NCBI GenBank assembly: GCA_029934555.1
Contig: JAOZMA010000001.1
Coordinates: 2,259 to 26,258, forward strand
Length of the DNA: 24,000 nucleotides
Origin: Acidimicrobiia bacterium
GTDB lineage: Bacteria; Actinomycetota; Acidimicrobiia; Spongiisociales; UBA5794
Direction of reading: 5' to 3'
Positions 3,785-21,133 of this stretch are shown piece by piece (the first letter of the stretch is position 1; each line of letters begins with the position of its first letter). The notes beneath the pieces are model-generated. The model worked only from the letters and a program-made list of their open reading frames with translations. It did no database searches and had not been told where the DNA came from. The translations under genes were made by a program, and so were the position numbers.

Positions 3785-3793
3785 GAGCGGAGA

Positions 3794-3849
3794 GCTAACA
3801 GCTCACAGCTCCTAGCCGACAGCTCACAGCTCACAGCCAACAGCCAGGA
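3794..3849. repeat. Tandem heptamer array, 8 units (GCTAACA GCTCACA GCTCCTA GCCGACA GCTCACA GCTCACA GCCAACA GCCAGGA)
   Basis: Read directly from the sequence. It begins 10 nt after the epimerase TAG (3782-3784). In cyclic register the core is ACAGC. Confidence 0.9.
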
Positions 3850-4424
3850 AGGCGTTGGCGTTCGAGGCCCACGAGCAACAATCCTCGCTGTCCGCTGTCC
3901 GCTGTCCGCTGTCCGCTGTCTGCTGTCTGCTGTCTGCTGTCTGCTGTCTGCTGTCTGCTGTCTGCTGTCCGCTCCAAGTCTTCGACCGTCTTCGGCCGGT
4001 CTTCCTTCAACAGCTTCGACAGTGCCCTGTCGGTGAGGATCCTGCCATTCGTCCGGCATCCCGGGCAGCAGTTGGTCTCTCGAACTCCGGGAACGATCCG
4101 CTGGATCGGCACCTCGCACTTCGGACACGGCTGTCCGAACTTGCCGTGCACGGCCATGTCCGGGTGGAACGCGGTGACCTTCGTCGGGAAACCATCACCC
4201 GTCTCGGCTATCCGAATTCCGGTCCATTCTGCGAGCGTGTCACCCGTCGCTTCGAAGAGATGCTCGGCCTCTTCGGCGTGTGCCGCTCGCGACCGAGGCG
4301 TCGATCGGCGGATCATAGGTACGGAGCACCGAGACGCTGCGAACCCGAACCCCGGTCAACATCTCACCAACGACCCGCGTTCGAAGAGCGTGGAGATAGC
4401 CTCGATCTCAGGAAGTCCAGGCAT
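3831..4424 (-). pseudogene. Fpg/Nei-family DNA glycosylase remnant (N-terminal catalytic peptide + in-frame TGA + C-terminal zinc-finger part; central domains missing)
   Basis: The minus frame from ATG 4424 reads MPGLPEIEAISTLFERGSLVRC, resembling the Fpg N-terminus MPELPEVE. An in-frame TGA follows at 4358-4356. After 13 more codons comes the track ORF (4316..3831), which holds the Fpg/Nei zinc finger and tail: [14 protein letters not shown]...[22 protein letters not shown]. About 145 codons run from the ATG to that tail, versus roughly 270 in full-length family members. The ORF then runs on through the heptamer array. Confidence 0.55.
3887..3970. repeat. Tandem heptamer array, 12 units (GCTGTCC x4, GCTGTCT x7, GCTGTCC x1)
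   Basis: Read directly; 84 bp of strict 7-nt periodicity. The core GCTGT is the reverse complement of the ACAGC core of the 3794-3849 array, so the two arrays are quasi-inverted (5 of 7 positions per unit can pair). On the minus strand it is translated as (TADSRQQ)2(TADSGQR)2 at the tail of the Fpg-like ORF. Confidence 0.95.
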
Positions 4425-4439
4425 GCCAAAGTCGCCGGA

Positions 4440-4527
4440 CTCCAGTCGCCAGTCCCCAGTCCGAGATACGCACCGGCCTTCCGCTGCGGGCCCTTTTTCC
4501 CTTGCGTCTGGTGACTGGGGACTGGTG
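4440..4527. repeat. Inverted heptamer arrays (CTCCAGT CGCCAGT CCCCAGT ... TCTGGTG ACTGGGG ACTGGTG) forming a long stem-loop; possible terminator of cofE
   Basis: Left array 4440-4460, right array 4507-4527. A perfect 13-bp stem pairs CCAGTCCCCAGTC (4449-4461) with GACTGGGGACTGG (4513-4525). An inner 5-bp helix pairs ACGCA (4467-4471) with TGCGT (4503-4507). The right array ends 2 nt from the cofE stop (4530-4532, minus strand). No U-tract follows on the minus strand. Confidence 0.7.
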
Positions 4528-4529
4528 TC

Positions 4530-5225
4530 TCATCGGAACATGTCTTCTTCTGGGGGTCTTACTAGATCGGTTGCTCGTCCTTCACCTGTCAGATCGAGGC
4601 CGCGGACGACGGCTGCGGGGATCTGGTCGGACTTGCCCATGACGAGGTCTGCCGCCGCTGCGATCTCATCGACGATCGCGATCTCGGTGACGTTCATCGT
4701 GCGTCCCCGGGCATCCGTCTCACCGCGCAGATCGAGGATCGCCGGGAGCCCTGAGACACCGATAGCGACGTCGACGAGGCCGCGCCGCCACGGGCGGCCG
4801 AAGGTGTCTGTGATCACGACGGCGATCGAGGCGCCCAACGCACGTTCGATACGAAGCCGGATCCGATGCGCCGACCGGTCGGGGTCGACGGGGAGGAGGA
4901 CAGCCCATCCGTCTTCCACATTGGAACGATCGACCCCGGCATTAGCACAGATGAACCCGTGCTCGGTCTGTGCGATGAGAAGATCGCCGCGGCGTCTCAG
5001 AATCGATCGAGCTTCCCGTTCGGCGAGTTCCCGGTAGGCACGATCATCGGCAGCTTGCTCGATCCGGCCTTCGGCCTTGGAGACCACCTTGTGAGTGATG
5101 ACCACGATGTCGCGATCGGTCAGCGTGATCTTCGAGGTCGCGAGGCCGTCGACGATGAGCGCCGCAAGATCGTCGCCGGGGGCAACCTCGGGTATCCCGA
5201 CAATCGGGTGGAGCTCGATGCTCAT
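4530..5225 (-). CDS. cofE: Coenzyme F420-0:L-glutamate ligase (CofE domain only)
   Basis: Motifs THKVVSKAEGR, ICANAGVDRSN, ITDTFGRPWRRG. I prefer ATG 5225 (MSIELHP...), which overlaps the cofD stop as ATGA. The track start at 5246 is the alternative. Confidence 0.85.
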   Translation of the reverse strand: MSIELHPIVGIPEVAPGDDLAALIVDGLATSKITLTDRDIVVITHKVVSKAEGRIEQAADDRAYRELAEREARSILRRRGDLLIAQTEHGFICANAGVDRSNVEDGWAVLLPVDPDRSAHRIRLRIERALGASIAVVITDTFGRPWRRGLVDVAIGVSGLPAILDLRGETDARGRTMNVTEIAIVDEIAAAADLVMGKSDQIPAAVVRGLDLTGEGRATDLVRPPEEDMFR

Positions 5226-6184
5226 GTGAAGGTCTCCTGGAACCACTCGGCGAATCTTCGGGCCCCATCCGGGGAGCCAAGTCGGGTGTCGGTGGCGTGG
5301 ATCATGACGGATGCTGACAGTTTCTCTGCGTCTCTCGCGTCTCCGATGTCGATGACAAGATCGGAGATGAGACCCTCGTACGCTGCGAGTATGCCTGCGT
5401 TCCCTGCAGGGAATCCGAGAGACCTCATCACTCGATCGGCCGGCCCCTTGAGCGCCTTGCCTCCGAAGAGGGGGCTGATCGCTACGACGCGTTCCTTCTC
5501 GACGACGGCCTGTCGAATCTCAGGGACGGCGATGATCGGTCCGATCGATAGAGGCGGATTCGACGGGGCGATCACGACGAGATCCGCGGCAGCGATGGCC
5601 TCGAGAACTCCGGCGGCGGGCTTGGCGTGTTCGGCACCGGCGTACTCGACTTCGACGACATGGTCACGGTGTCCGCGCTCGACGAAGTACTCCTGAAACG
5701 GGAGCCATGTTCCGTCCGAGATCCGAACCCTGGTGCGGAGCCGATCATCGGTCGCAGGCAAGATCCGTGTTCCAACGCCGAGCGCAGACCGAATCCGCTC
5801 GATGACCTCCGAGAGTTTGTGCCCAGACTGCAGCATCCGCGTTCGCAGCAGGCAGGTCGCCAGGTCACGATCACCGAGCCGGAAGGTGGTATCGGCACCG
5901 AGCCTCTCGAGTTGATCCATCACGGAGAACGAGTCCTCGCCGATGCCCCAGCCGTGTGGCCCCTCGATACCGGCAAGCGTGTAGAGAACGGTGTCGAGGT
6001 CGGCGGACACATGGACACCGTGGACCAGTTCATCATCGCCCACGTTGCCGACAACGACGAGGTGGTCGTCGGCAAACACGTGTGTGAGGGACCTGGCACC
6101 GCGTGCTCCGCCGACTCCGCCGGTCAACACAACGGCGAAAGGATTGGAATATGTCGTCTTAGGTCCTTGAATGGTCTCGTTCAT
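5222..6184 (-). CDS. cofD: 2-phospho-L-lactate transferase (LPPG:FO transferase)
   Basis: Start at ATG 6184 (M135 of track ORF 5222..6586), preceded by GGAGA. The N-terminus VVLTGGVGGARG is typical of CofD. The upstream 134 codons are Ser/Arg/Thr-rich and lie antisense to the glycosyltransferase gene. Confidence 0.85.
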   Translation of the reverse strand: MNETIQGPKTTYSNPFAVVLTGGVGGARGARSLTHVFADDHLVVVGNVGDDELVHGVHVSADLDTVLYTLAGIEGPHGWGIGEDSFSVMDQLERLGADTTFRLGDRDLATCLLRTRMLQSGHKLSEVIERIRSALGVGTRILPATDDRLRTRVRISDGTWLPFQEYFVERGHRDHVVEVEYAGAEHAKPAAGVLEAIAAADLVVIAPSNPPLSIGPIIAVPEIRQAVVEKERVVAISPLFGGKALKGPADRVMRSLGFPAGNAGILAAYEGLISDLVIDIGDARDAEKLSASVMIHATDTRLGSPDGARRFAEWFQETFT

Positions 6185-8975
6185 GTCATCTCCGGAGGGC
6201 GCACGCCCAGTATCAATCGCGGCCGTGATCATCGCTCGACGCGATGCCGATCTGCCAGCGACCATCGAATCGGTCCGTCGCCAAGTGTACGAAACACAGC
6301 GGATCATCGTGGTCGGTGGTGACAAGGACGCGCGCCGGGTCGCTTCTGACAACGGTGTCGAGTGGATAACGAGTGTCGCCGGCGTGATAGAGACCTGTGG
6401 CGACGTCACCCATATGTGGTTCGTCCTGGACGGAGTACGCGCTCGGCCGGACGCTCTCGGTGCGCTGGTTCGTGGCCAGGCACGCCTTGATGCCTCGGTG
6501 GCCGGATCAAAGATCCTCGATGAAAAGAACCCCGACCGGTTGCTCTCTGTCGGATACGCGACCGACGTATTCGAGACGCCGTACACGGGATTCGACGAGG
6601 ATGAACTCGACCAAGGTCAGTACGACGTTGTTCGCGATGTTGCTGCCGTCGGTGGGCAGTCGACACTCATGCGAATGGACCTTGCCCGGGGCCTCGGCGG
6701 TCCGGACACTGCGATGGCGCCGGTTGCGGCAGCCGTCGACTTCTGCCAGAGAGCACGTCTCCGGGGCGCACGCGTCGTGGCGATTCCCTCATCAGAGGTG
6801 CTGGCCCACAACGACCATGACGAACTCGATCGATGGAGTGAGCGCGCCGGACGCATCCGGGCCATGATCAAGGTCTACGGGCCACTGACGCTGTTCTGGG
6901 CACTCCCGATGGCCTTTCTCTCCGGTTTCGCTCAGTCCTTCCTGTCGCTCTTCCTGGGACGTTGGCGGTTCTTCGAGTGGATCCGGGCGTGGCTGTGGAA
7001 CCTGGTGAAACTGCCGAACACGCTCCATGAGCGTCACGCCGCGCGAAAGGGGCGAGTCGTCGGTGACGCCGAGCTCTTCAGATATCAGATCAGCGGTTCC
7101 GTCGCCCTCAAATCCGTTGTAACGGAGTTGTCAGATCGGATCCGACGGAGGCTCCCGGGAGAAGACCAGTTCTCGGTCGAGGCAGTCGGCGAAGAGCTCA
7201 GACGGCCATCGTTCATCGTTGGAGCGGTCGCGCTGCTGTTCGTTCTTCTCGCTACCCGAAGCATCTGGTCCGTTGGTTTGCCGGCGATCGGGTTCAGCCT
7301 GCCGTTCCCGGATTCGGGGCCCGGAGCCATTTCGGCGTATGCCGGGGGTTGGAACCCGGCGGGTCTTGGATCCGTAGAACCGCTCCGACCGTTCATCGCC
7401 CTCGCGGGTCTGATCCAAACCATCCTCTTCGACAATCGACGTCTCGCCGAGTACATCTTGACCGTAGGGTCGTGGCTCGTCGGGATATGGGGCGTCGTCC
7501 GCCTGCTGCGCACCTGGAGCATCCGTGCGGTCGCCGGGACCCTCGCGGGGATCGTGTACGTCGCCGGCCCCGCCGCACAGGCAGTGGCCCAAGAGACGGC
7601 GGTTGGGGTCGCCATCGTCATCGGACTGATCCCCTGGTCCATGCGATTTGCTCTCGCTCCTTTCCCGGCCTCGTGGGGTGCGAGAGTCGGACGAATCACG
7701 GCCGTCGCGATCCTCGCCGGCCTCGCTGCGATGCTCGCACCGCTCACGCTCGCGATCCCGGTAGCCGCTTTGCTCATATGGGCCCTCCTCAACTTCACCG
7801 ACGGCACCTTGTGGCGAGCGTTCGGTATCTCGCTTGGGGGAGCTGTCCTCGCTGTTCCACTGCTCTTTCCCTGGCTGGGAACCGCAGATCTGTATCGCTT
7901 CGTCACCGACGGCGAGGCCTACTGGTCGCTTCCGATCGTCACCGCCGTCATCGTTGTGATCGCCGCGGCGGCCGTGCTCGTGGCAGCGCCGCCCCGGCTC
8001 GCCCTGATCGCCGCTTGGGGCGCCGTGCTGGCTGCGGTGGGGACGTTCCTTGCCCGATCCGCAGGATTCGGCTCGGGCAGAGAGATCGAGGCCGCAGGGA
8101 TCGCGGTCGTCTCGCTGGGGGTGGGACTCATCGTCGGTCCGTCCTTCGAAGCGATCACGCGTGTTCGTGAAGTAGGCGGGTGGCGGCGCATCGTTAGTGG
8201 AATCGCGGTCGCGGCATCGGTCTTCCTCGTTGCGACCGCCGTCGTCACGGTTCTTGGTGGTCGCGCCGGCTATCCGAGCGATGAATACCGGGAAGCATTC
8301 ACCTTTTCGGCTGCACGGCCGGGTGATCCGACGGCATCGAGGATCCTCGTCCTCGGAGCACCAGGCAATCTTCCCGGTGATGACAGGACCGTCGGCGGAG
8401 CGGCGTATCGTCTTGTTTCTGCGCCGATGCCGGAGTCGTGGGAGACGCACTTGCACACGGCGAGAATCGGCGATGATGCGCTCTCCGACACGCTGGAATC
8501 GATCATCGATGGAGAGACGAAACGCGCTGGTGAGCTGCTTGCTCCGTTCGGCGTTCGGTGGATCGTCATCCTCGGCGAGACCGAGATGGACCCGTTCGCC
8601 GAAGCGTGGAGGACCATCTTCATAGGTCAACTCGACCTGGTGCCCCTCGGTGGGGGACTCGCCAACACAACGTTCGAGAACGAAGCCGAGAACGCTGTTC
8701 GCGCTGTCAGCGCCGAGGGCACGCCGTGGACGCGTGCCGGAACCGGTTATCAGGGGACACGGGAATTCGGGATCGGCCTCGAAGTGAGAGAGAACGCAAA
8801 CGATCGTTGGGGCCCGGGTGACTGGGAGCAGATTGGATGGGCGAACGGGGTAACGGCGGCAACCGGCACGGTTGGATTCGAACCTATCAACAGTCGTCAA
8901 TCGCAAGCCATCGCCGCCGCCGTGTGGCTCGTCGCCCTCACCGGCGTCGCATGGGGCGGGAGGAGATTCGGATGA
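6171..8975 (+). CDS. Large membrane glycosyltransferase: N-terminal GT2-like domain + polytopic membrane region + C-terminal soluble domain
   Basis: 934-aa ORF. The N-terminal ~230 aa has a GT2-like layout (VSIAAVIIARRDAD...TIESVRRQ...WFVLDG). Many hydrophobic helices follow between roughly aa 240-700, then a soluble C-terminal region. The start is uncertain (ATG 6171 or 6183). Either start overlaps the divergent cofD start codon. Confidence 0.8.
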   Translation: MVSFMSSPEGARPVSIAAVIIARRDADLPATIESVRRQVYETQRIIVVGGDKDARRVASDNGVEWITSVAGVIETCGDVTHMWFVLDGVRARPDALGALVRGQARLDASVAGSKILDEKNPDRLLSVGYATDVFETPYTGFDEDELDQGQYDVVRDVAAVGGQSTLMRMDLARGLGGPDTAMAPVAAAVDFCQRARLRGARVVAIPSSEVLAHNDHDELDRWSERAGRIRAMIKVYGPLTLFWALPMAFLSGFAQSFLSLFLGRWRFFEWIRAWLWNLVKLPNTLHERHAARKGRVVGDAELFRYQISGSVALKSVVTELSDRIRRRLPGEDQFSVEAVGEELRRPSFIVGAVALLFVLLATRSIWSVGLPAIGFSLPFPDSGPGAISAYAGGWNPAGLGSVEPLRPFIALAGLIQTILFDNRRLAEYILTVGSWLVGIWGVVRLLRTWSIRAVAGTLAGIVYVAGPAAQAVAQETAVGVAIVIGLIPWSMRFALAPFPASWGARVGRITAVAILAGLAAMLAPLTLAIPVAALLIWALLNFTDGTLWRAFGISLGGAVLAVPLLFPWLGTADLYRFVTDGEAYWSLPIVTAVIVVIAAAAVLVAAPPRLALIAAWGAVLAAVGTFLARSAGFGSGREIEAAGIAVVSLGVGLIVGPSFEAITRVREVGGWRRIVSGIAVAASVFLVATAVVTVLGGRAGYPSDEYREAFTFSAARPGDPTASRILVLGAPGNLPGDDRTVGGAAYRLVSAPMPESWETHLHTARIGDDALSDTLESIIDGETKRAGELLAPFGVRWIVILGETEMDPFAEAWRTIFIGQLDLVPLGGGLANTTFENEAENAVRAVSAEGTPWTRAGTGYQGTREFGIGLEVRENANDRWGPGDWEQIGWANGVTAATGTVGFEPINSRQSQAIAAAVWLVALTGVAWGGRRFG

Positions 8976-10450
8976 GACTGGTCATCGCAGCCATCGTCGT
9001 GGCCGCCGTGGGAGCATTCGCGCTTGTACAGACTGAACCCGTTGCGGAGCGCCCGCCAGATTTCGGTGTGCCACCCGCCGAGACGGTCGGTGCGAGTGGC
9101 GACCCGAGCGCCTGGTACTGCCCGTGGGTTGTCTCCGGCGCTCTACGGGATTCGACGTTCAATCTGGGATCGATGATGGATGTCAACGCCACGATCACAC
9201 TCCCGAACCCGAATCCAACTGAAGATCCGAGCATCAACGAGACACGGCTCCGGGGACCGGGGGCCAGGAGCATCGATGCCGGCGACATCGTCCGCAGAGG
9301 TACGGCGCCCGGTGTCGTGGAGTTCGATGACGGGCCAGCAGTCGCGACGACGGTGATGTGGTCAGAAGAGATCTTGACCGGCGACAGGTGCGTCGCTTCG
9401 GTCCCGAAGGAGTGGCACCTCGTCGGTGGCATCACGGCTGAGGGTTTCACCCTTGAGCTCCAGCTGTTCAATCCGTTCGCAGAGAGTGCCAAGGTCACCA
9501 TCGAGGCGATCACTGAGTTCGGCAGGTCGCCGTTGGCAGGGTTCGAGAGCTTCGATGTCCCCGGAAGGTCGTGGGTCACGGAGGATCTCTCCCGCGTCAT
9601 CCCATTCCTCGACATGGCCACGTTCACCGTGACATCCGAGAGCGGGATCGTCATTCCCAGCCTCATCCTCAACAATGAGAACGACGAGGCATCCTGGCCG
9701 GGAACCGGGCAATCAACGATCTGGGACTTCCCTGTGACAAGTCTCCCCGGGTTGGAACCGACACTTGTGATCTCGAACACCGGCAGCGTCGGGGCCACGG
9801 TTGCGATCGACCTCTTCACACCCGACGGCCCGATTCTCGACGCCGACGGCAGGATCGTGGCGCCGCTCGAACCGTTGCGAATCCACCTGGCAGATCTGGC
9901 GGAGCCGCCCTTCGCCGTGCGTGTGCGATCGAACGCTCCGATCGGGGCGATCATCCAGGCGGCACCGGAGGGCACGTTCCCGAGAACCGACATCCTGCCG
10001 CCGGAGGAAGAGGTTGGCGACGAGTCCACGGACGAAGATGCGCCAGACGATGAAGCGACGGACGAAGACACTGCCGATACGACCGGGGATGAGGAATCCG
10101 AAGAGCCGGTCGTCTATGACGGACTGGCAGCGATGCCGGGGAACACGGATCCGCTCGAACGCTGGCTGGTCCCCGGCCTTGGAGTCGTGCCGGGTGCGGA
10201 GACTTCGATCTGGATACTCAACCCATCCGATGAGAGGGCGACCGTGACCGTGAGTCCCCTCGGTGTCTCTGCCGTCAGTTCCGAGAAGATCGTGATCCCC
10301 GCAGGTCGGTACGTGGAGATCCCCATGCCTTCTCTCTCCGAGTCGGGAAACTCAGGGATGCTCATCGATGCGAGCCTGCCGGTCTCCGTCGCTGTGTCGA
10401 TCGCCGGACCTCAGGGTGTGGCGTTCATCGGCGGTGTCGGAGTCGGATGA
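8972..10450 (+). CDS. Exported/anchored protein of unknown function, DUF5719-like by position and architecture
   Basis: ATG 8972 (M46 of the track ORF) is preceded by GGAGGAG and overlaps the upstream stop as ATGA. N-terminal signal/anchor MRLVIAAIVVAAVGAFALV. Acidic low-complexity insert EEEVGDESTDEDAPDDEATDEDTADTTGDEESEE. The family name is from memory and unverified. Confidence 0.75.
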   Translation: MRLVIAAIVVAAVGAFALVQTEPVAERPPDFGVPPAETVGASGDPSAWYCPWVVSGALRDSTFNLGSMMDVNATITLPNPNPTEDPSINETRLRGPGARSIDAGDIVRRGTAPGVVEFDDGPAVATTVMWSEEILTGDRCVASVPKEWHLVGGITAEGFTLELQLFNPFAESAKVTIEAITEFGRSPLAGFESFDVPGRSWVTEDLSRVIPFLDMATFTVTSESGIVIPSLILNNENDEASWPGTGQSTIWDFPVTSLPGLEPTLVISNTGSVGATVAIDLFTPDGPILDADGRIVAPLEPLRIHLADLAEPPFAVRVRSNAPIGAIIQAAPEGTFPRTDILPPEEEVGDESTDEDAPDDEATDEDTADTTGDEESEEPVVYDGLAAMPGNTDPLERWLVPGLGVVPGAETSIWILNPSDERATVTVSPLGVSAVSSEKIVIPAGRYVEIPMPSLSESGNSGMLIDASLPVSVAVSIAGPQGVAFIGGVGVG

Positions 10451-10464
10451 CCACCCCGAAATGC

Positions 10465-10493
10465 TTGGTCCGTGTCCTTCCGAGCCCTAAATT
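10465..10493 (+). promoter_or_regulatory. Candidate promoter for the DUF3499 gene (-35 TTGGTC, 17-nt spacer, -10 TAAATT)
   Basis: TTGGTC at 10465-10470 and TAAATT at 10488-10493. The ATG at 10503 is only 9 nt downstream, so the leader would be very short or absent. Pattern match only. Confidence 0.3.
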
Positions 10494-10502
10494 TACGCGG
10501 CC

Positions 10503-10718
10503 ATGACCTGCGTACGCTGCTCCTCAAACTCCACCTCGTGCCTCACCTACGCATACGATCGTCGTGAGGCGTGGTTGGTCGACAGCGAGGGTTCTGTCCT
10601 ACCCGGTACTCGATACCCGCTCTGCACGACCCACGCCGATCGAGTGACGCCACCACTCGGGTGGATTCTCCACGATCGCAGATCCCAGCCGACATTGTTC
10701 GCTCCGGGTCCGGCGTAG
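10503..10718 (+). CDS. DUF3499-family small protein
   Basis: 71 aa with N-terminal Cys cluster CVRCSSNSTSC. The segment YPLCTTHADRVTPPLGWILHDRR matches the DUF3499 pattern (LC..HA...P.GW..D.R) as I recall it. It sits in the conserved position next to the GT/DUF5719 pair. Confidence 0.7.
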   Translation: MTCVRCSSNSTSCLTYAYDRREAWLVDSEGSVLPGTRYPLCTTHADRVTPPLGWILHDRRSQPTLFAPGPA

Positions 10719-10726
10719 GCCGCGGG

Positions 10727-11008
10727 GTGTCGATCGACAGGGACGTTCTCGAGGCCGTGAGAGAGATGGACGAGCATGAACTGCGTCGGCTCTACATCCT
10801 CGTCAAGGCTCGCCTCGAAGGGCGCGGTGTTGATCTGCCGGGATCGGGCCCCGAGGTCAAGCTGCGGAAACAGATGGTGAGATGCGGGAAAGAGAGCTGC
10901 ACCCGCTGTCCCCACGGCCCCTACTGGTACGCCTACTGGAACGAAGACGGAAAGCGTCGATCCCGCTACCTAGGGAAGATGGAAGACCTACCGGAAGCGA
11001 TTGGCTGA
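10727..11008 (+). CDS. Small zinc-ribbon protein (helical N-terminus + CGKESCTRCPHGPYWYAYW...GKRRSRYLGK), DUF6788-like
   Basis: This is the downstream part of track ORF 10571..11008; the earlier part overlaps the DUF3499 gene. In-frame start candidates are GTG 10727, GTG 10757 (GAGG 2 nt upstream) and ATG 10766. The C..C..C-HGPYWY-W-GK-Y.G block is a motif I recall from DUF6788-type proteins (unverified). Confidence 0.5.
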   Translation: MSIDRDVLEAVREMDEHELRRLYILVKARLEGRGVDLPGSGPEVKLRKQMVRCGKESCTRCPHGPYWYAYWNEDGKRRSRYLGKMEDLPEAIG

Positions 11009-11100
11009 AGTCGCCAGTCGCCATCTACCAGCAAGAACCCGAAGCCTGGTCGGATACCGACGATCGAGTACGGAGTACGGAGTACGGAATACTGGCTACT
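11009..11100. repeat. Heptamer-periodic intergenic tract: AGTCGCC x2 (11009-11022) ... GAGTACG x3, GAATACT, GGCTACT (11066-11100)
   Basis: Read directly. The first unit starts 1 nt after the TGA at 11006-11008. AGTCGCCAGTC also occurs in the 4440-4460 array. A small hairpin GTCGG-ATA-CCGAC lies between the two blocks. Confidence 0.75.
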
Positions 11101-11123
11101 CTTCCCCTCATGGAAGGTAGAAC

Positions 11124-14002: not shown

Positions 14003-14020
14003 TGCGCCGGATCTCCAGGC

Positions 14021-14722: not shown

Positions 14723-14782
14723 GTCGGCGGTGAGTGTAGGAAGGGATCGGAGACAGGGGCCCGGCCCATCCCGATTCGACCG

Positions 14783-14796
14783 TACAATCCCAATCA
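14783..14796 (+). promoter_or_regulatory. -10 box TACAAT placed 7 nt before the phosphomannomutase ATG; probable leaderless mRNA start
   Basis: TACAAT lies at 14783-14788 and the ATG at 14796. There is no Shine-Dalgarno sequence between them. This geometry is typical of leaderless actinobacterial transcripts. No convincing -35 element. Confidence 0.4.
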
Positions 14797-16133
14797 TGGA
14801 TCTCGACACCATCTTCAAGGCGTACGACGTACGCGGCCTCTACCCGACTCAGATCGACGAGGAGGCGGCTCGACGGATCGGGTACGGTTTCGGCACCTTT
14901 GCCGCTGCCGATCGGATCGCTGTCGGCCGGGATTGTCGGGCCTCGTCGCCGGCGATCGTGGCTGCTCTCATCGAAGGGATCACTGCCACGGGAACCGACG
15001 TTGTCGACATAGGCGAGATCACGACCGATGGCCTCTACTTCGCGTCAGGATCGATGGATCTCCCCGGCGTGGTCGTGACCGCATCTCACAATCCTCCCGA
15101 GTACAACGGGCTGAAGTTCTGTCTGGCCGGCGCTGCGCCGGTCGGTGAGGACACGGGGTTGTCTGAGATCAAGCGGATCGCCGCATCGGATCACGAAGCG
15201 CAGGATGACCGGGGTTCGGTCGAGGTCGTCGACATCCTCGACGGATACGTCGATCATCTCTTCGGAGTCGTCGACGTAGCGGTGTTCTCGGATCTGACCG
15301 TTGCGGCAGATGGGGGGAACGGGATGGCCGGTATCGCCCTGCCGTCGGTCTTCGATCGGCTGCCGGCCAGACTCATCGGCCTCTACCTCGAGCCGGACGG
15401 AGCATTCCCGAATCACCCGGCCGACCCCCTCAGGCCCGAGAACCTCGTCGACCTCCTGGCCCTGATGGCCGAGACCAAGCCGGATCTCGGCGTGGCGTTC
15501 GACGGTGACGCCGACCGGGCTTTCTTCATCGACGACGAGGGCGTTCCATTGCCGGGAAGCACGACGACTGCGATCATCGGCGACTGGTTCCTCAAAGGTG
15601 AGCCAGGAGCGTCGATCGTGCACAACCTCATCTGTTCGAAGGCAGTCCCCGAGAGGGTCAGCGAGGCCGGAGGCGTTCCGGTGCGGACGAGAGTCGGGCA
15701 CTCCTTCATCAAGCAAGTCATGAAGGAGACCGGCGCCGTGTTCGGTGGAGAGCACTCCGGTCACTACTACTTCCGCGACAACTACCGCGCCGACTCGGGG
15801 ATCCTCGCGATGCTCGTCCTGATGCAGGTGATGTCCGAGGACGGACGCCCGCTCTCCGAACTCCGCATCGACTACGAGCCGTACGTCGGTTCGGGGGAGA
15901 TCAACTACGACGTTGCAGACCAGGCCGGGGCTACCGCCGCCGTGGCCGCCGCATACAGCGATGCCCGGATCGACTACCTCGATGGCCTGACCGTCGATCT
16001 TGGCGATCGGTGGTTCAACCTTCGACCGTCGAACACCGAGCCGAAGCTCAGACTCAACGCAGAAGCCCCAAACGCTGCCGCTGTGGACGAACTCGTCGCA
16101 GCGGTGGCATCGATCATCGAGGAGGGACCGTGA
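14796..16133 (+). CDS. manB: Phosphomannomutase/phosphoglucomutase
   Basis: Start at ATG 14796 (M26 of the track ORF; MDLDTIFKAYDVRG is the typical N-terminus). Active-site loop TASHNPPEYNG, metal loop FDGDADR, and GEHSGHYYF. Confidence 0.9.
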   Translation: MDLDTIFKAYDVRGLYPTQIDEEAARRIGYGFGTFAAADRIAVGRDCRASSPAIVAALIEGITATGTDVVDIGEITTDGLYFASGSMDLPGVVVTASHNPPEYNGLKFCLAGAAPVGEDTGLSEIKRIAASDHEAQDDRGSVEVVDILDGYVDHLFGVVDVAVFSDLTVAADGGNGMAGIALPSVFDRLPARLIGLYLEPDGAFPNHPADPLRPENLVDLLALMAETKPDLGVAFDGDADRAFFIDDEGVPLPGSTTTAIIGDWFLKGEPGASIVHNLICSKAVPERVSEAGGVPVRTRVGHSFIKQVMKETGAVFGGEHSGHYYFRDNYRADSGILAMLVLMQVMSEDGRPLSELRIDYEPYVGSGEINYDVADQAGATAAVAAAYSDARIDYLDGLTVDLGDRWFNLRPSNTEPKLRLNAEAPNAAAVDELVAAVASIIEEGP

Positions 16134-16312
16134 CCGACCATCTGATCGACCCGGCGTTGCTGGAGATCATGCAATGCCCGTCTTGCACCGGAACGCTCGT
16201 CGAGCGGCCCGAGCCGCCGGCACTCATCTGTTCGGAATGCGGACTCCAGTACCCGGTCCAAGACGGCATTCCCGTCATGCTGATCGACGAAGCCACGCCT
16301 TCCGACCAATGA
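16130..16312 (+). CDS. Trm112-family small zinc-ribbon protein
   Basis: GTG 16130 is preceded by GGAGGGA and overlaps the manB stop as GTGA. 60 aa with LLEIMQCPSC...CSECGLQYPVQDGIPVMLIDEA. Confidence 0.8.
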   Translation: MTDHLIDPALLEIMQCPSCTGTLVERPEPPALICSECGLQYPVQDGIPVMLIDEATPSDQ

Positions 16313-17301
16313 CCATGTTCGATGACATCATGAGCTTGCCGCAGCAACTGCGATGGGGGATCGGCCACGACGTCGCTCCGATACGCTCCGACGGGCCGAT
16401 CGTGCTCCTCGGCATGGGAGGGTCTGCAATGGCGGCCACCATCGGAACCCTCGCATCCACACCACGCGCCCCCATGGTCGTACACCGTGGCTACGGGCTT
16501 CCCCCATGGGCAGCAGAGAGCGGAGCCGCGGTCCTCGCCGTGTCGTACAGCGGGAACACCGAAGAAGTGCTCTCCGGTGTGGATCAGGCGATCTCAGAAG
16601 GCCTCGAAATCTCCGCGATCGCCTCCGGTGGCCGACTCGGTGAGATCGCACGAGAACGTGATCTGCCGTACGTGGAGGTTCCCGGAGGTCTCCAACCCCG
16701 TGCAGGCGTTGGATACCAAACCGCGGCTGTGGCCGCCATGCTCGGCGCCGCCGGTCAGATCTCCAACGCCGACGCTGCACTGGCCGAAGCCGCAGACGTC
16801 GTCGATCGCCTTCTCGACGGCGGCAAAGGCGGCGCCGTGAACCTCGGCCGTGACCTCGCCGCCGGCCTCGAGGATCGAACGGCCGTCATCTACGGCGGGC
16901 TTGGAATCGGTTCAACCGCGGCCTACCGGTGGAAGACACAGATCAACGAGAACGCCAAGGTCCCTGCCTTCTCAGGAGCCGTTCCAGAGATGAACCACAA
17001 CGAACTCGAAGGATGGCAACCCGGCTCGAGTGACGGCTTCGGCGTCATCTACCTCAGGGACGCCGCAGATCATCCGAGTGTTGCCCGTCGGTTGGATCTC
17101 TCAGGGACGGTTCTGTCGGGGAAGGTCCGCCGCGTCGGTGACGTTCTCTCGACCGGAGACGGTCCACTTGCCCGGTTCTTCAGTCTTGCCGTCGTCGGCG
17201 ACGTCGCATCCGTAGCGATGGCGGAGACGGCAGGCGTCGATCCGACACCGGTCGAGACACTTGAGGCTTTCAAGACGATGCTTGCGAAAGGAACATCATG
17301 A
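16309..17301 (+). CDS. SIS-domain bifunctional phosphoglucose/phosphomannose isomerase family protein
   Basis: ATG 16309 (M104 of the track ORF) overlaps the Trm112-like stop as ATGA. Motifs LLGMGGSAMAA, VSYSGNTEE and NHNELEG. It occupies the manA-equivalent position of the actinobacterial block. Confidence 0.75.
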   Translation: MTMFDDIMSLPQQLRWGIGHDVAPIRSDGPIVLLGMGGSAMAATIGTLASTPRAPMVVHRGYGLPPWAAESGAAVLAVSYSGNTEEVLSGVDQAISEGLEISAIASGGRLGEIARERDLPYVEVPGGLQPRAGVGYQTAAVAAMLGAAGQISNADAALAEAADVVDRLLDGGKGGAVNLGRDLAAGLEDRTAVIYGGLGIGSTAAYRWKTQINENAKVPAFSGAVPEMNHNELEGWQPGSSDGFGVIYLRDAADHPSVARRLDLSGTVLSGKVRRVGDVLSTGDGPLARFFSLAVVGDVASVAMAETAGVDPTPVETLEAFKTMLAKGTS

Positions 17302-18545
17302 ATTATGACATTGCTGATCCGGGGTTGGCTTCTGAGGGTCATCGGAGGATCGCGTGGGCGGATCGGCGGATGCCGGTTCTTGCTGTGATTCGGGAGCGGT
17401 TCGAGGCTGACAAGCCGTTGGATGGTGTGCGGGTCGCGGCGTGTATGCATGTGACGTCTGAGACGGCGGTGTTGATGTACGCGTTGCGTGCCGGTGGTGC
17501 GTCGGTTGTGTTGTGTGCGTCGAATCCGTTGTCGACTCAGGATGATGTGGCTGCGGCGCTCGTTGAGGACGGTATCCCGGTGTATGCGGTGCGTGGCGAG
17601 GATTCGGATACGTTCTACGAGCACATCAACGCGATTCTGGATACGGAGCCGCATCTGGTGTTCGATGACGGGGCGGATACGACGACGGTGTTGCATCGGG
17701 AGCGGAAGGATCAGGCGATCCTTGGTGGTTTGGAGGAGACAACAACCGGGGTGTTGCGCCTGAGGGCGATGGCTGCGAATGGCGTGTTGCGGTATCCGGT
17801 GGTTGCGGTGAACGATTCCGCGACGAAGCATCTGTTCGACAATCGTCACGGCACGGGCCAGTCGTCTCTTGATGGGATCCTGCGGGCGTCGAATATCCTG
17901 TTCGCGGGTCGTACGGTGGTTGTTGCGGGGTTCGGTGACTGTGGTTGGGGTGTTGCTCGTCGGGCAGCCGGTTTGGGTGCGAGTGTGGTCGTGATCGAGG
18001 TCGATCCGATCCGGGCGCTGTCTGCTGCGATGGAGGGGTATCGGGTGATGACGGCTGCTGAGGCTGCTCCTGTTGGTGACGTGTTCATCACGGTGACTGG
18101 AGACATCCACATCTTCCGGCCCGAGCATTTCGTCGTGATGAAGGACAACGTGATCCTGGCGAACGCCGGGCACTTCGATGTGGAGCTCGATCTGAAGGGT
18201 CTTCGGGAGATGGCGGTCGCGAGCCGTGAGATCCGTGAGAATCTCGTCGAGTTCGAACTCGCCGACGGACGACGGATCATCGTCGTTGCTGAAGGTCGGC
18301 TTGTAAACCTGTCTGCGGCGGAGGGTCATCCTGCTGATGTGATGGACATGTCGTTCGCCGATCAGGCGCTCGCAGCGGAATGGCTCATCGACGTCGGTGA
18401 CGATCTCGCACCCGACGTGTACGTGCTGCCACACGAACTCGACGAATCCGTCGCCAGACTCAAACTCGAATCGATGGGCGCCTCACTAGAGACCCTGACA
18501 GAAGAACAAGCCAAATACCTCGAGTCCTGGGAAGAAGGAACGTAG
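17298..18545 (+). CDS. ahcY: Adenosylhomocysteinase
   Basis: 415 aa. ATG overlaps the upstream stop as ATGA. Motifs CNPLSTQD-like (CASNPLSTQDDVAAAL), ETTTGV, NDSATKHLFDNRHGTGQS, NAD loop AGFGDCGWG, and GHFDVE. Confidence 0.95.
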   Translation: MNYDIADPGLASEGHRRIAWADRRMPVLAVIRERFEADKPLDGVRVAACMHVTSETAVLMYALRAGGASVVLCASNPLSTQDDVAAALVEDGIPVYAVRGEDSDTFYEHINAILDTEPHLVFDDGADTTTVLHRERKDQAILGGLEETTTGVLRLRAMAANGVLRYPVVAVNDSATKHLFDNRHGTGQSSLDGILRASNILFAGRTVVVAGFGDCGWGVARRAAGLGASVVVIEVDPIRALSAAMEGYRVMTAAEAAPVGDVFITVTGDIHIFRPEHFVVMKDNVILANAGHFDVELDLKGLREMAVASREIRENLVEFELADGRRIIVVAEGRLVNLSAAEGHPADVMDMSFADQALAAEWLIDVGDDLAPDVYVLPHELDESVARLKLESMGASLETLTEEQAKYLESWEEGT

Positions 18546-18546
18546 A

Positions 18547-18626
18547 AGAGCTGCCAGCTACCAGCCGCCAGCTTCCGAAGTCGGACTGGCAGCTGGTAGC
18601 TGGGCGCTGGTAGCTCTCTTTCTGTC
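18547..18626 (+). terminator. Long imperfect hairpin built from inverted heptamer units (GCTGCCA GCTACCA GCCGCCA GCTTCCG / CTGGCAG CTGGTAG CTGGGCG CTGGTAG), followed by a pyrimidine/T-rich tract
   Basis: Starts 2-5 nt after the ahcY TAG (18543-18545). Segment 18557-18578 pairs with 18581-18600, with one mismatch and one bulge. Alternative registers exist because both arms are tandem arrays. It is followed by CTCTCTTTCTGTC. Confidence 0.5.
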
Positions 18627-18651
18627 CCACCCTTGCCGTACGGTCGAGAGC

Positions 18652-19371
18652 ATGTTCTGCCTCTCCTGCACCATGCCTTGTTCCGGGTCGCTCTGTGAGC
18701 GGTGCCGACTTGAACTGCGGCCGGCGCCGGAAGTATCGGTTGGCCCGGGTCTGATCGGTGTGGCCGGTTTCGCCCATGAAGGACCCGCCCGTCGCCTCGT
18801 TCATGCACTGAAGTACCGGGCCGTTTTCGCTGCGGCGGTACCGCTCGCTGATGCGATAGCGGAGAGGATCCCCGGGTCGGCAACCGCTCTCGTCCCCGTG
18901 CCGAGGGCCAGGCTTCGAGCGTTTCGCCACGGCATCGATCCGGCGGCCGTTCTCGCCGATGAGCTCTCACTGCGAACCGGCCTCCCCGTCATCGATGCGA
19001 TTCGACCGAGGCTGTGGTGGCGCCGGCACGCCGGTCGAAGGCGCGACGAGCGCTCATCTGTTCCTTTCACACCAACCGGCGTGCTCGTTCCGAAGGACGC
19101 TGCGCTTGTCGACGATGTACTGACAACGGGAGCGACGGCCCGCGCTGCGGCTGCCGCACTTGAGGGTCTTCCGACTCTTGTCCTGGTGGCTACTTGCGCG
19201 AGTAAGATGAAGCCAGGAGAGAGTCCCTATGGAGGTGCGGTGACGGTTCAACCGCTCAGCGGTCCGGCCGATAGAAGCACCCTCCGCGCCCGAACGAACA
19301 AAGCAGGTCGATTCAACGCGTCCTCGAGACGTTCGGTGGGGCAGAGTCGCAATCGAGAGGAGTACGAGTGA
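18652..19371 (+). CDS. ComF-family phosphoribosyltransferase-like protein
   Basis: N-terminal Cys-rich finger (CLSC...CERC) and PRPP loop LVDDVLTTGATA. About 55 extra C-terminal residues after the PRT fold run up to the hpf start (GTGA overlap). Confidence 0.75.
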   Translation: MFCLSCTMPCSGSLCERCRLELRPAPEVSVGPGLIGVAGFAHEGPARRLVHALKYRAVFAAAVPLADAIAERIPGSATALVPVPRARLRAFRHGIDPAAVLADELSLRTGLPVIDAIRPRLWWRRHAGRRRDERSSVPFTPTGVLVPKDAALVDDVLTTGATARAAAAALEGLPTLVLVATCASKMKPGESPYGGAVTVQPLSGPADRSTLRARTNKAGRFNASSRRSVGQSRNREEYE

Positions 19372-19916
19372 ACGTTCGGATCCACGGGCGGAACACCGAG
19401 ATCGCAGACGATGTCCGCGATCTCGCTCATGAGAAGGTCGAGCATGCATCGAGGATCTTCGACGACGTGACGAGTGTCGACGTCGAGTTCTCCGAGAATG
19501 GCAACCCGAGGCAGACCGACGGCAGATATCGCGTCGAGATCACCTCGAACGCCGCCGGCCAGATCGTTCGCGTCGAGTCGGATGCGTTCGATGCCAGGGC
19601 GGCGCTCGACACCGCGTCCGACAAGTACGAACGTCAGCTTCGCAGACTCAAAGAGCGGCTCATCCAACGTTCCCGCAAGGGCAGCCACAAAGACCTCAAC
19701 CCGGCCGTCGACCCGGTCGATGACCTACATGACCGGGACGCTGTCATCGTGAAGCGGAAGCGATTCGCGATGCGGCCCATGTCGGTCGAGGAAGCTGTAT
19801 TGCAGATGGAGATGCTCGGACACGACTTCTTCGTTTTCCTCGACGCAGACACAGGCAGACAGTCGGTGCTCTACTACCGGCGGGATGGCGATCTCGGGAT
19901 GATCGAACCGGAGTAA
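19368..19916 (+). CDS. hpf: Ribosome hibernation promoting factor (long HPF/RaiA type)
   Basis: GTG start preceded by GAGAGGAG. N-terminal RaiA fold (MNVRIHGRNTEI...YRVEI) and C-terminal dimerisation domain (MSVEEAVLQMEMLGHDFFVFLD...VLYYRRDGDLGMIEP). Confidence 0.9.
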   Translation: MNVRIHGRNTEIADDVRDLAHEKVEHASRIFDDVTSVDVEFSENGNPRQTDGRYRVEITSNAAGQIVRVESDAFDARAALDTASDKYERQLRRLKERLIQRSRKGSHKDLNPAVDPVDDLHDRDAVIVKRKRFAMRPMSVEEAVLQMEMLGHDFFVFLDADTGRQSVLYYRRDGDLGMIEPE

Positions 19917-19940
19917 GCCAGGCTGGAGTGTTGAGCCGAG

Positions 19941-20591
19941 ATGAGAAGATTGATTGTTGTCGACGATGTTCCACTCTTTCGAGCAGGGCTTGCCTCAGCG
20001 CTGAGAGATGCTGGATTCGAGGTTGTCGCCGAGTCGGGTGACGCCGAAGGCGCCGTCACCGCTGCTGAGGAGCATCAGCCGGATCTGGTCCTGCTCGACA
20101 TCCTGATGCCGGGTATCTCTGGTCTCGAAGTCGTCGAGAAGATCAGCGCCGTCGCTCCTGGAGCACAGGTGATCATGCTCACGGCAAGCGAGTCGGAAGA
20201 GGATCTGCTCGTCGGAGTCAAGGCAGGCGTTCGGGGTTACGTCACGAAGGACGCCCCGTTCGATGCTCTGGTCGCGGCCCTCGACGCTGTTGAGGGTGGT
20301 GGAGCTGCCGTATCGCCGAACATGGCCGGAAAGCTCCTCGACGTGACCCGTCAGCTCCTGCGTCACCAGGAGCTTCTGCAGTCGAGGAAGCCGGTGTTGA
20401 CCGGACGGGAACTCGAGGTTCTCCAACTCGTTGCACAAGGACAGACGAGCCGCGAGATCGGCGTTCTTCTGTTCATCTCCGAGAACACCGTGAAGAACCA
20501 CATCAGGAACATCCTCGACAAGCTAGGCCTCCACTCAAGAAACGAAGCAGTGCTGTACGCCGTGCGCGAGGACCTGATCAGTATCTCTTGA
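19941..20591 (+). CDS. NarL/LuxR-family two-component response regulator (no adjacent kinase)
   Basis: Receiver domain (VVDDVPL, DLVLLDILMPG, LTASE, KAGVRGYVTKD) and LuxR HTH (LTGRELEVLQLVAQGQTSREIG...SENTVKNHIRNILDKLG). Confidence 0.9.
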   Translation: MRRLIVVDDVPLFRAGLASALRDAGFEVVAESGDAEGAVTAAEEHQPDLVLLDILMPGISGLEVVEKISAVAPGAQVIMLTASESEEDLLVGVKAGVRGYVTKDAPFDALVAALDAVEGGGAAVSPNMAGKLLDVTRQLLRHQELLQSRKPVLTGRELEVLQLVAQGQTSREIGVLLFISENTVKNHIRNILDKLGLHSRNEAVLYAVREDLISIS

Positions 20592-20631
20592 GTAGATCAG
20601 TAGATCAGTAGATCAGTAGATCAGTAGATCA
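20592..20631. repeat. Perfect tandem octamer array (GTAGATCA) x5
   Basis: Read directly. It starts 1 nt after the regulator TGA (20589-20591). Every unit contains GATC. Confidence 0.97.
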
Positions 20632-20653
20632 GACTGCCCGACAGCTCGGTGTT

Positions 20654-21007
20654 TCACGATCGAACTCGACGCCTGAGTCCCGAGAGCATCCGCATGATCT
20701 CGGCCAACTCAACGAGGTAGCGGTCGGCGGTGTTTCCGTGTAGTTGTCCTAGAGCCTTCGCCAGGATCAGGTGGTTCTCAACCTCCGCCGCTGATCCGAT
20801 TGCGATTGTCAGGAATCTGCGGAATTCCTTCACCGACTCGCGTCCTGCGCCCTCGGCGATGTTCGCCGGGACCGACTCCGCCGCCCGCGTGAGTTGATCC
20901 CCGAGACCGAAGCGATGGCGACCTTGGAACATGTCGACTTCACCGTGAATGCTGATAGCCAGTTGGTGCGATCGTTGCCAGACGGTCAGTCTCTTGAAGT
21001 CTCTCAT
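20654..21007 (-). CDS. Four-helix-bundle protein (23S rRNA intervening-sequence protein / Avd family, TIGR02436 / PF05635 type)
   Basis: 117 aa. FKRLTVWQRSHQLAISIH...LGDQLTRAAESVPANIAEGAGRES.KEFRRFLTIAIGSAAEVENHLILA matches the family pattern (W-Q, Q..RAa.S...NIAEG, f..fL.iA.GS..E). It is the only gene between the inverted octamer arrays and is antisense to both flanking genes. Confidence 0.8.
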   Translation of the reverse strand: MRDFKRLTVWQRSHQLAISIHGEVDMFQGRHRFGLGDQLTRAAESVPANIAEGAGRESVKEFRRFLTIAIGSAAEVENHLILAKALGQLHGNTADRYLVELAEIMRMLSGLRRRVRS

Positions 21008-21060
21008 TCCCCAGTCGTACCAAAGGTCAGGACCAGTTGATAGACCTCTGACTGCCGTGC

Positions 21061-21084
21061 TGATCTACTGATCTACTGATCTAC
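21061..21084. repeat. Perfect tandem octamer array (TGATCTAC) x3, exact reverse complement of the 20592-20631 unit
   Basis: Read directly. It ends 50 nt upstream of the secA ATG and is bracketed by the 9-nt direct repeat ACTGCCGTG (21051-21059 and 21083-21091). Confidence 0.97.
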
Positions 21085-21133
21085 TGCCGTGAGGCCCCCA
21101 ACAAACTGCATACGCCCCGTAGTATTCGGCTCC

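Follow-up and report, generated by a model that had tools for sequence, protein, structure and literature searches.

We analysed a stretch of 24,000 nucleotides (nt) of Acidimicrobiia DNA (contig JAOZMA010000001.1 of assembly GCA_029934555.1; this whole stretch is called the window here), in which short units of 7 or 8 nt are repeated head to tail in the gaps between protein-coding genes. The gene map, which is based on Pfam, includes genes for an epimerase, a small Zn-ribbon protein, CofE, CofD, a DUF5719 protein, a DUF6788-like protein, phosphomannomutase, AhcY, a response regulator, a PF05635 protein and SecA. Arrays were located using Tandem Repeats Finder (TRF) and by direct reading of the sequence; a stricter array detector reports four arrays in the window, and the counts given here rest on TRF instead. 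After merging, TRF reports 10 arrays covering 388 nt, nine of which are intergenic, whereas 100 dinucleotide-preserving shuffles average 2.2 arrays covering 45 nt and reach six arrays at most.

Arrays of period 7 or 8 are present at all five loci (A to E) that had been named in a first-pass annotation made from the sequence alone, and both the coordinates and the distances to the neighboring stop codons were reproduced (Table 1). The gaps after the DUF5719, hpf and secA genes, which had been described as free of arrays, are indeed array-free according to TRF, and the proposed family of units with a common CAGY core is confirmed, with AGTCGCC present at both B and E. The annotation had also portrayed the arrays as being usually inverted pairs. 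This is true of loci B and C, which form clean hairpins (dG of -52 kcal/mol in both cases, z = -3.3 for B and z = -6.1 for C), and partly true of locus A, where A1 and A2 can pair at 5/7 positions per unit. Between E1 and E2 there is no complementarity (z = -0.2), and the arms at locus D enclose a gene.

Table 1. Repeat arrays and other features of the window, in order of position.
Feature	Position	Strand	Units or content	Nearest stop codon	Source
A1, 5' arm	3793-3849 (TRF 3793-3846)	+	about 7 units AGCTNAC/AGCCNAC	begins 9-10 nt past the epimerase stop codon (3782-3784)	TRF, unit layout
Small Zn-ribbon gene	3831-4316 (conserved part 4316-3975)	-			
A2, 3' arm	3887-3973	+	12.4 units, (GCTGTCC)4 (GCTGTCT)7 GCTGTCC		TRF
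B1	4430-4461	+	AGTCGCC/AGTCCCC units, CCCCAGT (= STRR1) included		TRF, sequence
Hairpin B	4444-4530			abuts the cofE stop codon (4530-4532, minus strand), gap 0-2 nt	
Terminator-like element	4475-4502	+	GGCCTTCCGCTGCGGGCC then CTTTTTCCCT		
B2, inverted partner of B1	4507-4530	+	GGTGACT GGGGACT GG		
ORF between cofD and DUF5719 gene	6171-8975		934 aa		
DUF6788-like gene	10571-11008				
E1	11009-11023	+	AGTCGCC x2.1	begins 1 nt past the TGA of the DUF6788-like gene	TRF, sequence
E2	11066-11092 (TRF), to 11100 with partner	+	(GAGTACG)x3.9, then degenerate partner TACTGGCTACT		
Period-21 repeat	15227-15275		2.3 copies, inside phosphomannomutase gene		TRF
Hairpin C	18549-18615 (arms 18549-18573, 18586-18615)	+	5' arm AGCTGCC AGCTACC AGCCGCC AGCT; 12-nt loop; 3' arm CTGGCAG CTGGTAG CTGGGCG CTGGTAG	begins 4-5 nt past the ahcY TAG	folding, sequence
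Conserved element upstream of 239-aa gene	18623-18631		TGTCCCACC		
D1, cassette 5' arm	20591-20632	+	(AGTAGATC)x5.2	overlaps the response-regulator TGA (0-1 nt)	TRF
Repeat after D1	20633-20640		ACTGCCCG		
PF05635 gene	20654-21007	-	117 aa		Pfam (E = 3.5e-32)
D2, cassette 3' arm	21060-21086 (21051-21091 with brackets)	+	(CTGATCTA)x3.4		TRF
Direct repeat bracketing D2	21051-21059, 21083-21091		ACTGCCGTG		
Conserved element upstream of secA	21116-21129		CCCGTAGTATTCGG		

Placement, pairing and distribution of the arrays

In order to examine placement outside the window we scored 164 array elements in about 600 kb of related metagenome contigs, from loci that were chosen by a perfect (CAGTAGAT)x3 match. 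An element was counted as stop-adjacent when a long stop-to-stop open reading frame (ORF) ended within about 15 nt of the array boundary. This test makes no use of gene calls and was chosen because the GC3-based gene finder was too noisy. A stop codon of an ORF of at least 100 codons abuts 61% of the elements, compared with 10.8% of positions drawn at random; raising the minimum to 200 codons gives 39% and 3.5%. The enrichment at gene 3' ends that had been suspected from the window therefore extends beyond it. The median gap between the stop codon and an array called by TRF is 1 nt, and 47% of the arrays overlap the stop codon.

Inverted pairs (n = 54) occur in these contigs alongside many unpaired arrays. 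Among 39 non-redundant hairpins, 15 lie between convergent ORFs, 19 after one ORF and five after none; their folding energy averages about -50 kcal/mol, and the stems measure 20-90 nt per arm. The inverted pairs share a fixed handedness: the ..CAGY.. arm, whose units begin with AG, is the 5' arm in 44 of the 54, and the ..RCTG.. arm in 4, these exceptions being mostly scoring ambiguities. A weaker form of the same handedness is visible in purine content, which is 0.59 in the left arm and 0.41 in the right (34 vs 11, p = 8e-4). Since a palindrome is identical on both strands, the handedness cannot be set by the direction of transcription or replication. The two arms are often built from different units that share only a core of 5-6 nt (for example, AGTAGCGC opposite the complement of AGTAGATC), and the arms of one pair also differ in length. 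Sense and antisense folding show no asymmetry (10 vs 9), and no G.U signature points to selection acting on the RNA. Unlike units and lengths, taken together with equal folding of the two strands, indicate that the pairing is maintained only loosely.

Exact-protein look-ups returned contigs that are 99.2-99.9% identical to the window from several independent metagenome assemblies; SecA used in this way gave no match, probably owing to a difference in the start codon that was called. A search of one genome for each GTDB species, with a 732-aa membrane protein as query, gave 77 syntenic loci, almost all of them labelled Acidimicrobiia or Actinomycetota (a few are probably mis-binned). The host of the window is an uncultured Acidimicrobiia lineage. 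Arrays of period 7 or 8 occur at 2.0 per 10 kb in relatives at least 80% identical to the query, at 0.66 per 10 kb and patchily in those that are 45-70% identical, and at 0.16 per 10 kb in those at 40% or below (Microthrixaceae, Ilumatobacteraceae and others), in which only coding-type repeats of 6 and 9 nt are common. In JGI metagenomes (CAGTAGAT)x3 is found at no fewer than 120 loci; about 95 of the matches listed have an equal G+C content of 0.60-0.65, and their flanks carry many further 7-8-nt arrays, built from dozens of distinct units. The exact (CAGTAGAT)x3 was also observed, among the matches listed, on contigs with a G+C content of 0.33-0.53, which belong to quite different organisms (L016, L020, L033, L037, L044, L056, L057, L062, L070, L074, L078, L080, L089, L097, L102, L121 and L123; L numbers denote the contigs and loci compared here). 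One of them, L016, has seven octamer or heptamer arrays within 5.8 kb.

Intergenic heptameric repeats were already recognised in 1990, as the short tandemly repeated repetitive (STRR) sequences of heterocystous cyanobacteria. Arrays with the unit GGGAATC in Xanthomonas and with GGGGA(C/T)T in Nostoc PCC 7120 were described by Rehm et al. [quoted passage not shown] About 70 of the Xanthomonas heptamer arrays form convergent inverted pairs and the others are single; in this high-GC genus, too, array position is conserved and length and sequence vary (PMC4692102). The same authors cite the STRRs of Calothrix and an earlier report of heptamer simple sequence repeats being over-represented in many bacteria. 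The Acidimicrobiia arrays agree with these repeats in several respects: there is an excess of 7-8-nt units arranged head to tail, they are intergenic and nearer to the upstream stop codon than to the following gene, they are single or form convergent pairs, and they keep their position in related genomes as their length and sequence vary. The likeness to cyanobacterial STRRs noted in the first-pass annotation was thus correct, and the arrays belong to this known class, here in a new phylum, Actinomycetota. The annotation had noted no equivalent for high-GC actinobacterial-type genomes; the architecture is already on record outside cyanobacteria, in high-GC Xanthomonas. We found no published account of such arrays in Actinomycetota in a literature search with incomplete coverage. 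The novel aspects are the host class, Acidimicrobiia, the presence of octamers, and the many units found in a single genome, and the window extends the STRR architecture to a third, unrelated lineage that is common in the sampled metagenomes.

At the level of individual units, AGTCCCC of array B corresponds to STRR1 (CCCCAGT, which occurs verbatim in the array, as had been pointed out) and to the reverse complement of Nostoc GGGGACT. Among the named STRR units (CCCCAGT, CAACAGT, TTGGTCA), CCCCAGT/AGTCCCC was seen in array B and in L139; most units share only the CAGY core. Unlike the arrays of Xanthomonas and Nostoc, those of Acidimicrobiia mix octamers with heptamers, draw on many unrelated units in a single genome, not on one or three, and provide a documented case of whole-hairpin allele replacement within one population. 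CCCC/GGGG is confined to array B, and G/C runs of three or more are missing from AGTAGATC, AGCTGCC, GAGTACG and GCTGTCT. As most Acidimicrobiia units lack a G-run, the G-quadruplex idea put forward for Xanthomonas and Nostoc does not apply to them. We also rejected CRISPR as an identity for the arrays, because the units are contiguous and have no spacers between them.

Turnover between strains and species

Comparison of the window with a 99.3%-identical strain shows that 121 of the 173 differing alignment columns fall within three array loci, namely E1, hairpin C and D1. Population-level data catch the arrays in the process of changing. E1 has 2.1 units in the window and x3.3 in conspecific strains, and E2, with x3.9 units in the window, has x2.9 in one conspecific strain. 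Across the strains compared, the copy number of D1 varies between 3.2 and 11.4, and that of D2 is invariant (3.4). Other populations show single-unit steps or local restructuring. These whole-unit differences between near-identical strains, in a population of about 99% identity, fit the earlier suggestion that stem length varies by slippage.

The change at the 3' end of ahcY is of another kind. In the 99.3%-identical strain an octamer hairpin, CAGTAGAT/ACTGATCT, stands in place of the whole of hairpin C; the flanks are identical, and the exchange extends to the stop codon (TAG vs TGA). Compared with a strain that has the other allele, the closest single-nucleotide polymorphisms (SNPs) are 230 nt away on the upstream side and 300 nt away on the downstream side. 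Import of the allele from a divergent species was considered and rejected, since the flanks are only a few SNPs away from conspecific strains; both alleles segregate within the species, and each allele type has a counterpart in a different species. Across close relatives the repeat-built ahcY hairpins begin at the stop codon and the unit differs by relative: AGCTNCC in the window and L137, CAGTAGAT in the conspecific strains, GAGTAGCG in L141 and L138, AGTCGGT in L139, and GTCACCA in L142. L140 has an ordinary non-repetitive hairpin at this site and L143 has nothing. The junction is thus retained across species as its sequence is exchanged. The sequence GGATTCTGTCCCACC, just downstream of the ahcY hairpin, is conserved throughout the relatives. 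We also observed that TGTCCCACC and CCCGTAGTATTCGG are both conserved across relatives as the adjoining array DNA is replaced; they are probably promoter or 5'-untranslated elements that bound the variable zone.

Two gene ends have been overwritten by arrays. In L001 (13243-13333, corresponding to 20550-20632 of the window) D1 has grown to 11.4 units and has taken the place of the final 41 nt of the gene for the response regulator, a protein that here has 204 aa in place of 216; the last 12 codons are lost, and the array supplies TAG in every frame. In the window, the small Zn-ribbon gene, which has a sub-threshold match to an Fpg-type zinc finger (E = 0.02), has lost its stop codon and continues for 47 extra codons through A2, giving the protein a repeat tail. 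Among the 30 relatives whose alignment reaches the C-terminus, the protein ends no more than 14 residues from a conserved ..EDLE-type end in 30/30, and within 0-4 residues in 28/30. This gene, which lies between the epimerase gene and cofE, is inverted in L135, L138 and L141 and absent in L136 and L137. With repeat hairpins on both of its sides, recombination between hairpins may flip or delete it. It was rejected as a second case of a gene inside a loop, as it lies between two separate hairpins and the arm order is wrong for a loop. Because the arrays both break metagenome assemblies and alter gene ends, the annotation of these genomes is affected.

The DUF6788-like gene upstream of locus E is 52-63% identical in relatives, compared with 80-93% for neighboring genes. 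Like the PF05635 gene, it is small, evolves fast and is located at an array-rich junction.

A PF05635 gene between inverted arrays

Locus D had been grouped with the gene-end pairs. Instead, D1 and D2, which are 100% complementary over 27 nt and 427 nt apart (427-435), enclose a gene of the PF05635 family (23S rRNA intervening-sequence protein, a four-helix bundle) that fills the loop between them. The only relative of this protein in the PDB is 2GSC, which is XCC0516 of Xanthomonas campestris (E = 2e-17). Intervening sequences (IVSs) of 23S rRNA, which carry the S23p/PF05635 ORF in Leptospira and Coxiella, are excised by RNase III; in the Coxiella IVS two to three GACAGAT heptamers, their number varying between strains, are found at the RNase III site, immediately upstream of this ORF (PMC4990558). 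Locus D resembles such elements in having a PF05635 ORF in the loop of enclosing inverted repeats that are able to form a long stem. It differs from them in lying between protein-coding genes (the response-regulator gene and secA) and not in 23S rRNA; the ORF-less hairpins of the other loci have no counterpart that we found in the IVS literature. The arms at locus D are the stem of an IVS-like cassette, not a 3'-end hairpin. We note that D2 alone is bracketed by the 9-nt direct repeat ACTGCCGTG and that the similar ACTGCCCG comes after D1; such sequences might represent outer units that have degenerated, or else a duplication that arose on insertion.

At the same junction in other species we found PF05635 genes that are 35-75% identical and stand in either orientation between neighbors that are 80-90% identical; the cassette can invert and be exchanged at its site. 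Wherever both flanks could be seen (L141, L186, L210, L215) the two arms had changed together. They are TAGCCGAG / ACTCGGCT in L141, AGTCGCC / ACTGGCG in L186 and AGCAGTAG / CTGATCTA in L210, and in L215 both arms are present around the PF05635 gene; L139 has the upstream arm followed by an N-gap. Some relatives have no cassette at the response-regulator/secA junction. A simple relation of filled and empty sites, for which L142 and L186 were compared, was not seen, as the units differ.

We then considered 17 independent contexts of PF05635 genes, scoring as clear those with an AG-type array upstream and a CT-type array downstream. By this definition 12/17 are clear, 4/17 partial and 1/17 negative, and the clear contexts come from Acidimicrobiia, metagenome-assembled genomes (MAGs) labelled Acidobacteria and Alphaproteobacteria, Anaerolineae, Nostocales, Picosynechococcus, Geminocystis and the 23S rRNA of Azospirillum. 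In the latter (Azospirillum lipoferum, L228) the gene lies inside the 23S rRNA gene, identified by Rfam as large-subunit rRNA, and the stem of this true IVS consists of the inverted heptamer arrays GAGGACG / GTCTTCT. The handedness and the link to PF05635 are two regularities that cross phyla: such hairpins enclose PF05635 genes in Cyanobacteria, Chloroflexota, Proteobacteria and Actinomycetota, as well as in the true rRNA IVS. In a literature search we found no published statement of a general association between PF05635 and arrays. One instance can be read from the supplement of Rehm et al. 2015 (PMC4692102), where the Xanthomonas GGGAATC repeat #15 overlaps the start codon of XCC0516, 6 nt from bccP.

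Plasmids offer a further view. In a 50-kb stretch of a Nostoc edaphicum plasmid with 20 arrays and 48 annotated genes, the PF05635 gene alone is enclosed by a matched inverted pair, and the purine-rich arm is 5' in this pair and in all four close pairs of the stretch. PLSDB contains 27 plasmids with a PF05635 homolog, about 23 of which are cyanobacterial.

The individual contexts are diverse. Bacterial loci outside Cyanobacteria include the junction between an FKBP gene and an ABC transporter (L211-213, AGTACCA / TACTTGC, 4-9 units by sample), that between macB and the EF-G gene (L216 and L235, AGCTNNC and CAGCTCT types / AGCTGAG and GCTGATA types), a site upstream of radC (L217-221, CAGCTTC x9.7 / AGCTGGA x4.4), an Anaerolineae contig with a GC content of 0.55 (L222, CAGTTAC type / TAACTGG type), and an alphaproteobacterial MAG in which the cassette lies between an ABC permease and an ATPase (L236-237, CAGCCAA / AAAGCTG). 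The cyanobacterial ones are Anabaena sp. 90, between cas6 and cas4 (L226, AGGTGAC type / CTGTCAC x4.3), N. edaphicum, between the beta and alpha genes of ribonucleotide reductase (RNR; L227, AGTAGGG x7.9 / TCCCTAC x4.9), Nostoc sp. C052 (L229, AGGGAAC x3.9 / CTGTTCC x7.4), N. punctiforme (L230, TCAGGAG x4.6 / CTGACTC x3.4), Picosynechococcus, between cas10 and cmr3 (L232, octamers AGGAGATA / ATCTCCTA), and Geminocystis (L233, AAAAGGG type / CTTTTCC x5.3). The arrays are direct and not inverted in Pseudanabaena, the arm order is reversed in Calothrix PCC 7716, the gamma plasmid of Nostoc PCC 7120 has an array on one side only, next to an insertion sequence (IS) element, and L139, with its single arm before an N-gap, is likewise atypical. 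The homolog in L214 has no arrays.

Five of the cassettes (L224, L226, L227, L232 and L236) split operon genes that are normally adjacent, namely cas6/cas4 (in two cyanobacteria), cas10/cmr3, RNR beta/alpha and ABC permease/ATPase.

Possible roles and origins of the arrays

On balance, we lean towards the view that the hairpins are structures of transcript 3' ends, acting in termination or pausing that needs no U-tract, in RNase III-type processing and protection, or in both, and that they change by slipped-strand mispairing. Under such a model the hairpins may stop or pause RNA polymerase without a U-tract, or may form double-stranded substrates for RNase III-type processing that shield the transcript from 3' exonucleases. 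The arrays would grow, shrink and homogenise by slipped-strand mispairing, with selection keeping just enough pairing, and locus D would be a special case in which the stem belongs to an IVS-like cassette with a PF05635 gene in its loop. Hairpin terminators that lack a U-tract have been reported for Actinobacteria and are common there. The array hairpins resemble intrinsic terminators in being stable, G+C-containing structures right after a stop codon, often common to two convergent genes, and in L140 an ordinary hairpin stands where other relatives have repeat-built ones. They differ from intrinsic terminators in having no T-tract, in their arm length and stability, and in being hypervariable stems of tandem units. 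No T/U-tract was flagged after the array stems, and tails such as CTCTCTTTCTGT are weakly T-rich.

Several observations weigh against a role at transcript 3' ends. Canonical terminators consisting of a hairpin and a T-tract are not enriched in the window (7 vs 8.6 expected) and none is located at an array, and the equal folding of sense and antisense strands gives no sign of selection on RNA; the terminator or RNA-stability function that had been proposed from the window is not supported by these results. The stems are far longer than a terminator needs, the arms are often unequal in unit and copy number (as in D1 and D2, or where AGTAGCGC arms face AGTAGATC-type arms), and the arrays sometimes overwrite gene ends, as in the Zn-ribbon gene and the response regulator of L001. 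The handedness is also left unexplained by a 3'-end model, save for the idea that a pyrimidine-rich 3' arm would yield a weak RNA:DNA hybrid. The lack of terminator features and of strand asymmetry, the long stems and unequal arms, and the encroachment on coding sequence keep neutral or selfish and IVS-like explanations alive. The sole canonical-looking terminator near an array is the element listed in Table 1 that sits in the hairpin B loop; both neighboring genes are on the other strand.

It is possible, though in our estimate unlikely, that the arrays are neutral or selfish microsatellites of no use to the host, in which slippage-prone units, generated by a mutational bias peculiar to the lineage, survive where they are tolerated, in the short spacers after stop codons, and hairpins arise by templated copying from one arm to the other. 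A process aimed at gene 3' ends, which the annotation had also suggested, and selection that spares arrays only where they do little harm would both lead to such a placement. Stems that average -50 kcal/mol, far past any functional need, would be expected in that case, and so would arms of unequal length and sometimes unit, arrays that run up to and over stop codons, the two overwritten gene ends (47 codons gained in one and 12 lost in the other), equal folding of both strands, and the patchy distribution among Acidimicrobiia. Neutral slippage is, however, not expected to produce a fixed handedness (44 vs 4), and inverted pairing is the rule here and not the exception. Junctions also stay occupied across species despite replacement of their sequence, in L140 by an ordinary hairpin at ahcY, whereas some gaps of similar size, such as that after the DUF5719 gene, are free of arrays.

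A broader proposal, which we put forward tentatively and do not expect to hold as it stands, links these elements across phyla. STRR-type arrays would act in cis as the stems of IVS-like cassettes and their ORF-less derivatives, PF05635 would be the trans factor, binding about five tandem units, and the units would come from a dedicated polar process instead of plain slippage. The structure 2GSC contains five chains, which we take as a pentamer. One candidate for the process is templated extension of 3' ends on both sides of a break, which would give palindromes of a unit and its reverse complement with fixed handedness, arms that are unequal and not identical, and short variable junction loops. 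If arrays and PF05635 are functionally linked in such a manner, the problems posed by STRRs, by intervening sequences in rRNA and by a very large family of orphan proteins could be addressed together.

It is rather doubtful that the arrays form a mobile IVS-like family, with the PF05635 cassettes as its full-length members and the ORF-less hairpins as non-autonomous ones, and with a PF05635 pentamer or an unseen enzyme recognising units or laying them down with fixed polarity. The 12/17 contexts with inverted arrays, the single enclosed gene of the N. edaphicum plasmid, the insertion of PF05635 genes between normally adjacent genes, the locus D gene that diverges much faster than its neighbors and flips its orientation, the GGGAATC array over the XCC0516 start codon, and the universal handedness all point in this direction. 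However, PF05635 proteins are small four-helix bundles with no catalytic domain, the L214 homolog is array-free, and L142 and L186 are not related as filled and empty sites. Neither a transposase (RAYT or other), nor a reverse transcriptase, nor terminal inverted repeats with a target-site duplication were seen, with no genome-wide search for transposases made. Repetitive extragenic palindromic (REP) sequences, bacterial interspersed mosaic elements (BIMEs) and MITEs (miniature inverted-repeat transposable elements) are likewise short, palindromic and intergenic, enriched after gene ends and often arranged as inverted pairs; unlike them, the arrays have no genome-wide consensus, and their tandem units differ between the loci of one genome. 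The octamer array was not found in IMG/VR viral contigs, which counts against mobility and led us to reject carriage by phage.

That the arrays are assembly or sequencing artefacts of metagenomic contigs is a possibility we consider negligible: many contigs do stop within an array, and N-gaps interrupt two scaffolds at locus E, but the arrays are recovered at identical places in independent JGI, NCBI and ENA assemblies of different samples and on contigs of 300-600 kb (L141, L142, L186), and the assemblies differ in discrete steps of whole units or by coherent allele swaps between identical flanks. Contig ends at arrays were seen in L002, L003, L006, L010, L012, L013 and others, and N-runs in L002 and L003 at E, L137 at C and L139 at D. 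As the arrays break short-read assemblies, copy numbers of the long ones may be under-called.

Other features of the window appear to be separate from the intergenic arrays. No Rfam families were found in the window. The sole coding array, the period-21 repeat in the phosphomannomutase gene, has no relation to the intergenic ones; it is in frame and is conserved across all strains. The 934-aa ORF between cofD and the DUF5719 gene is conserved and has no Pfam match.

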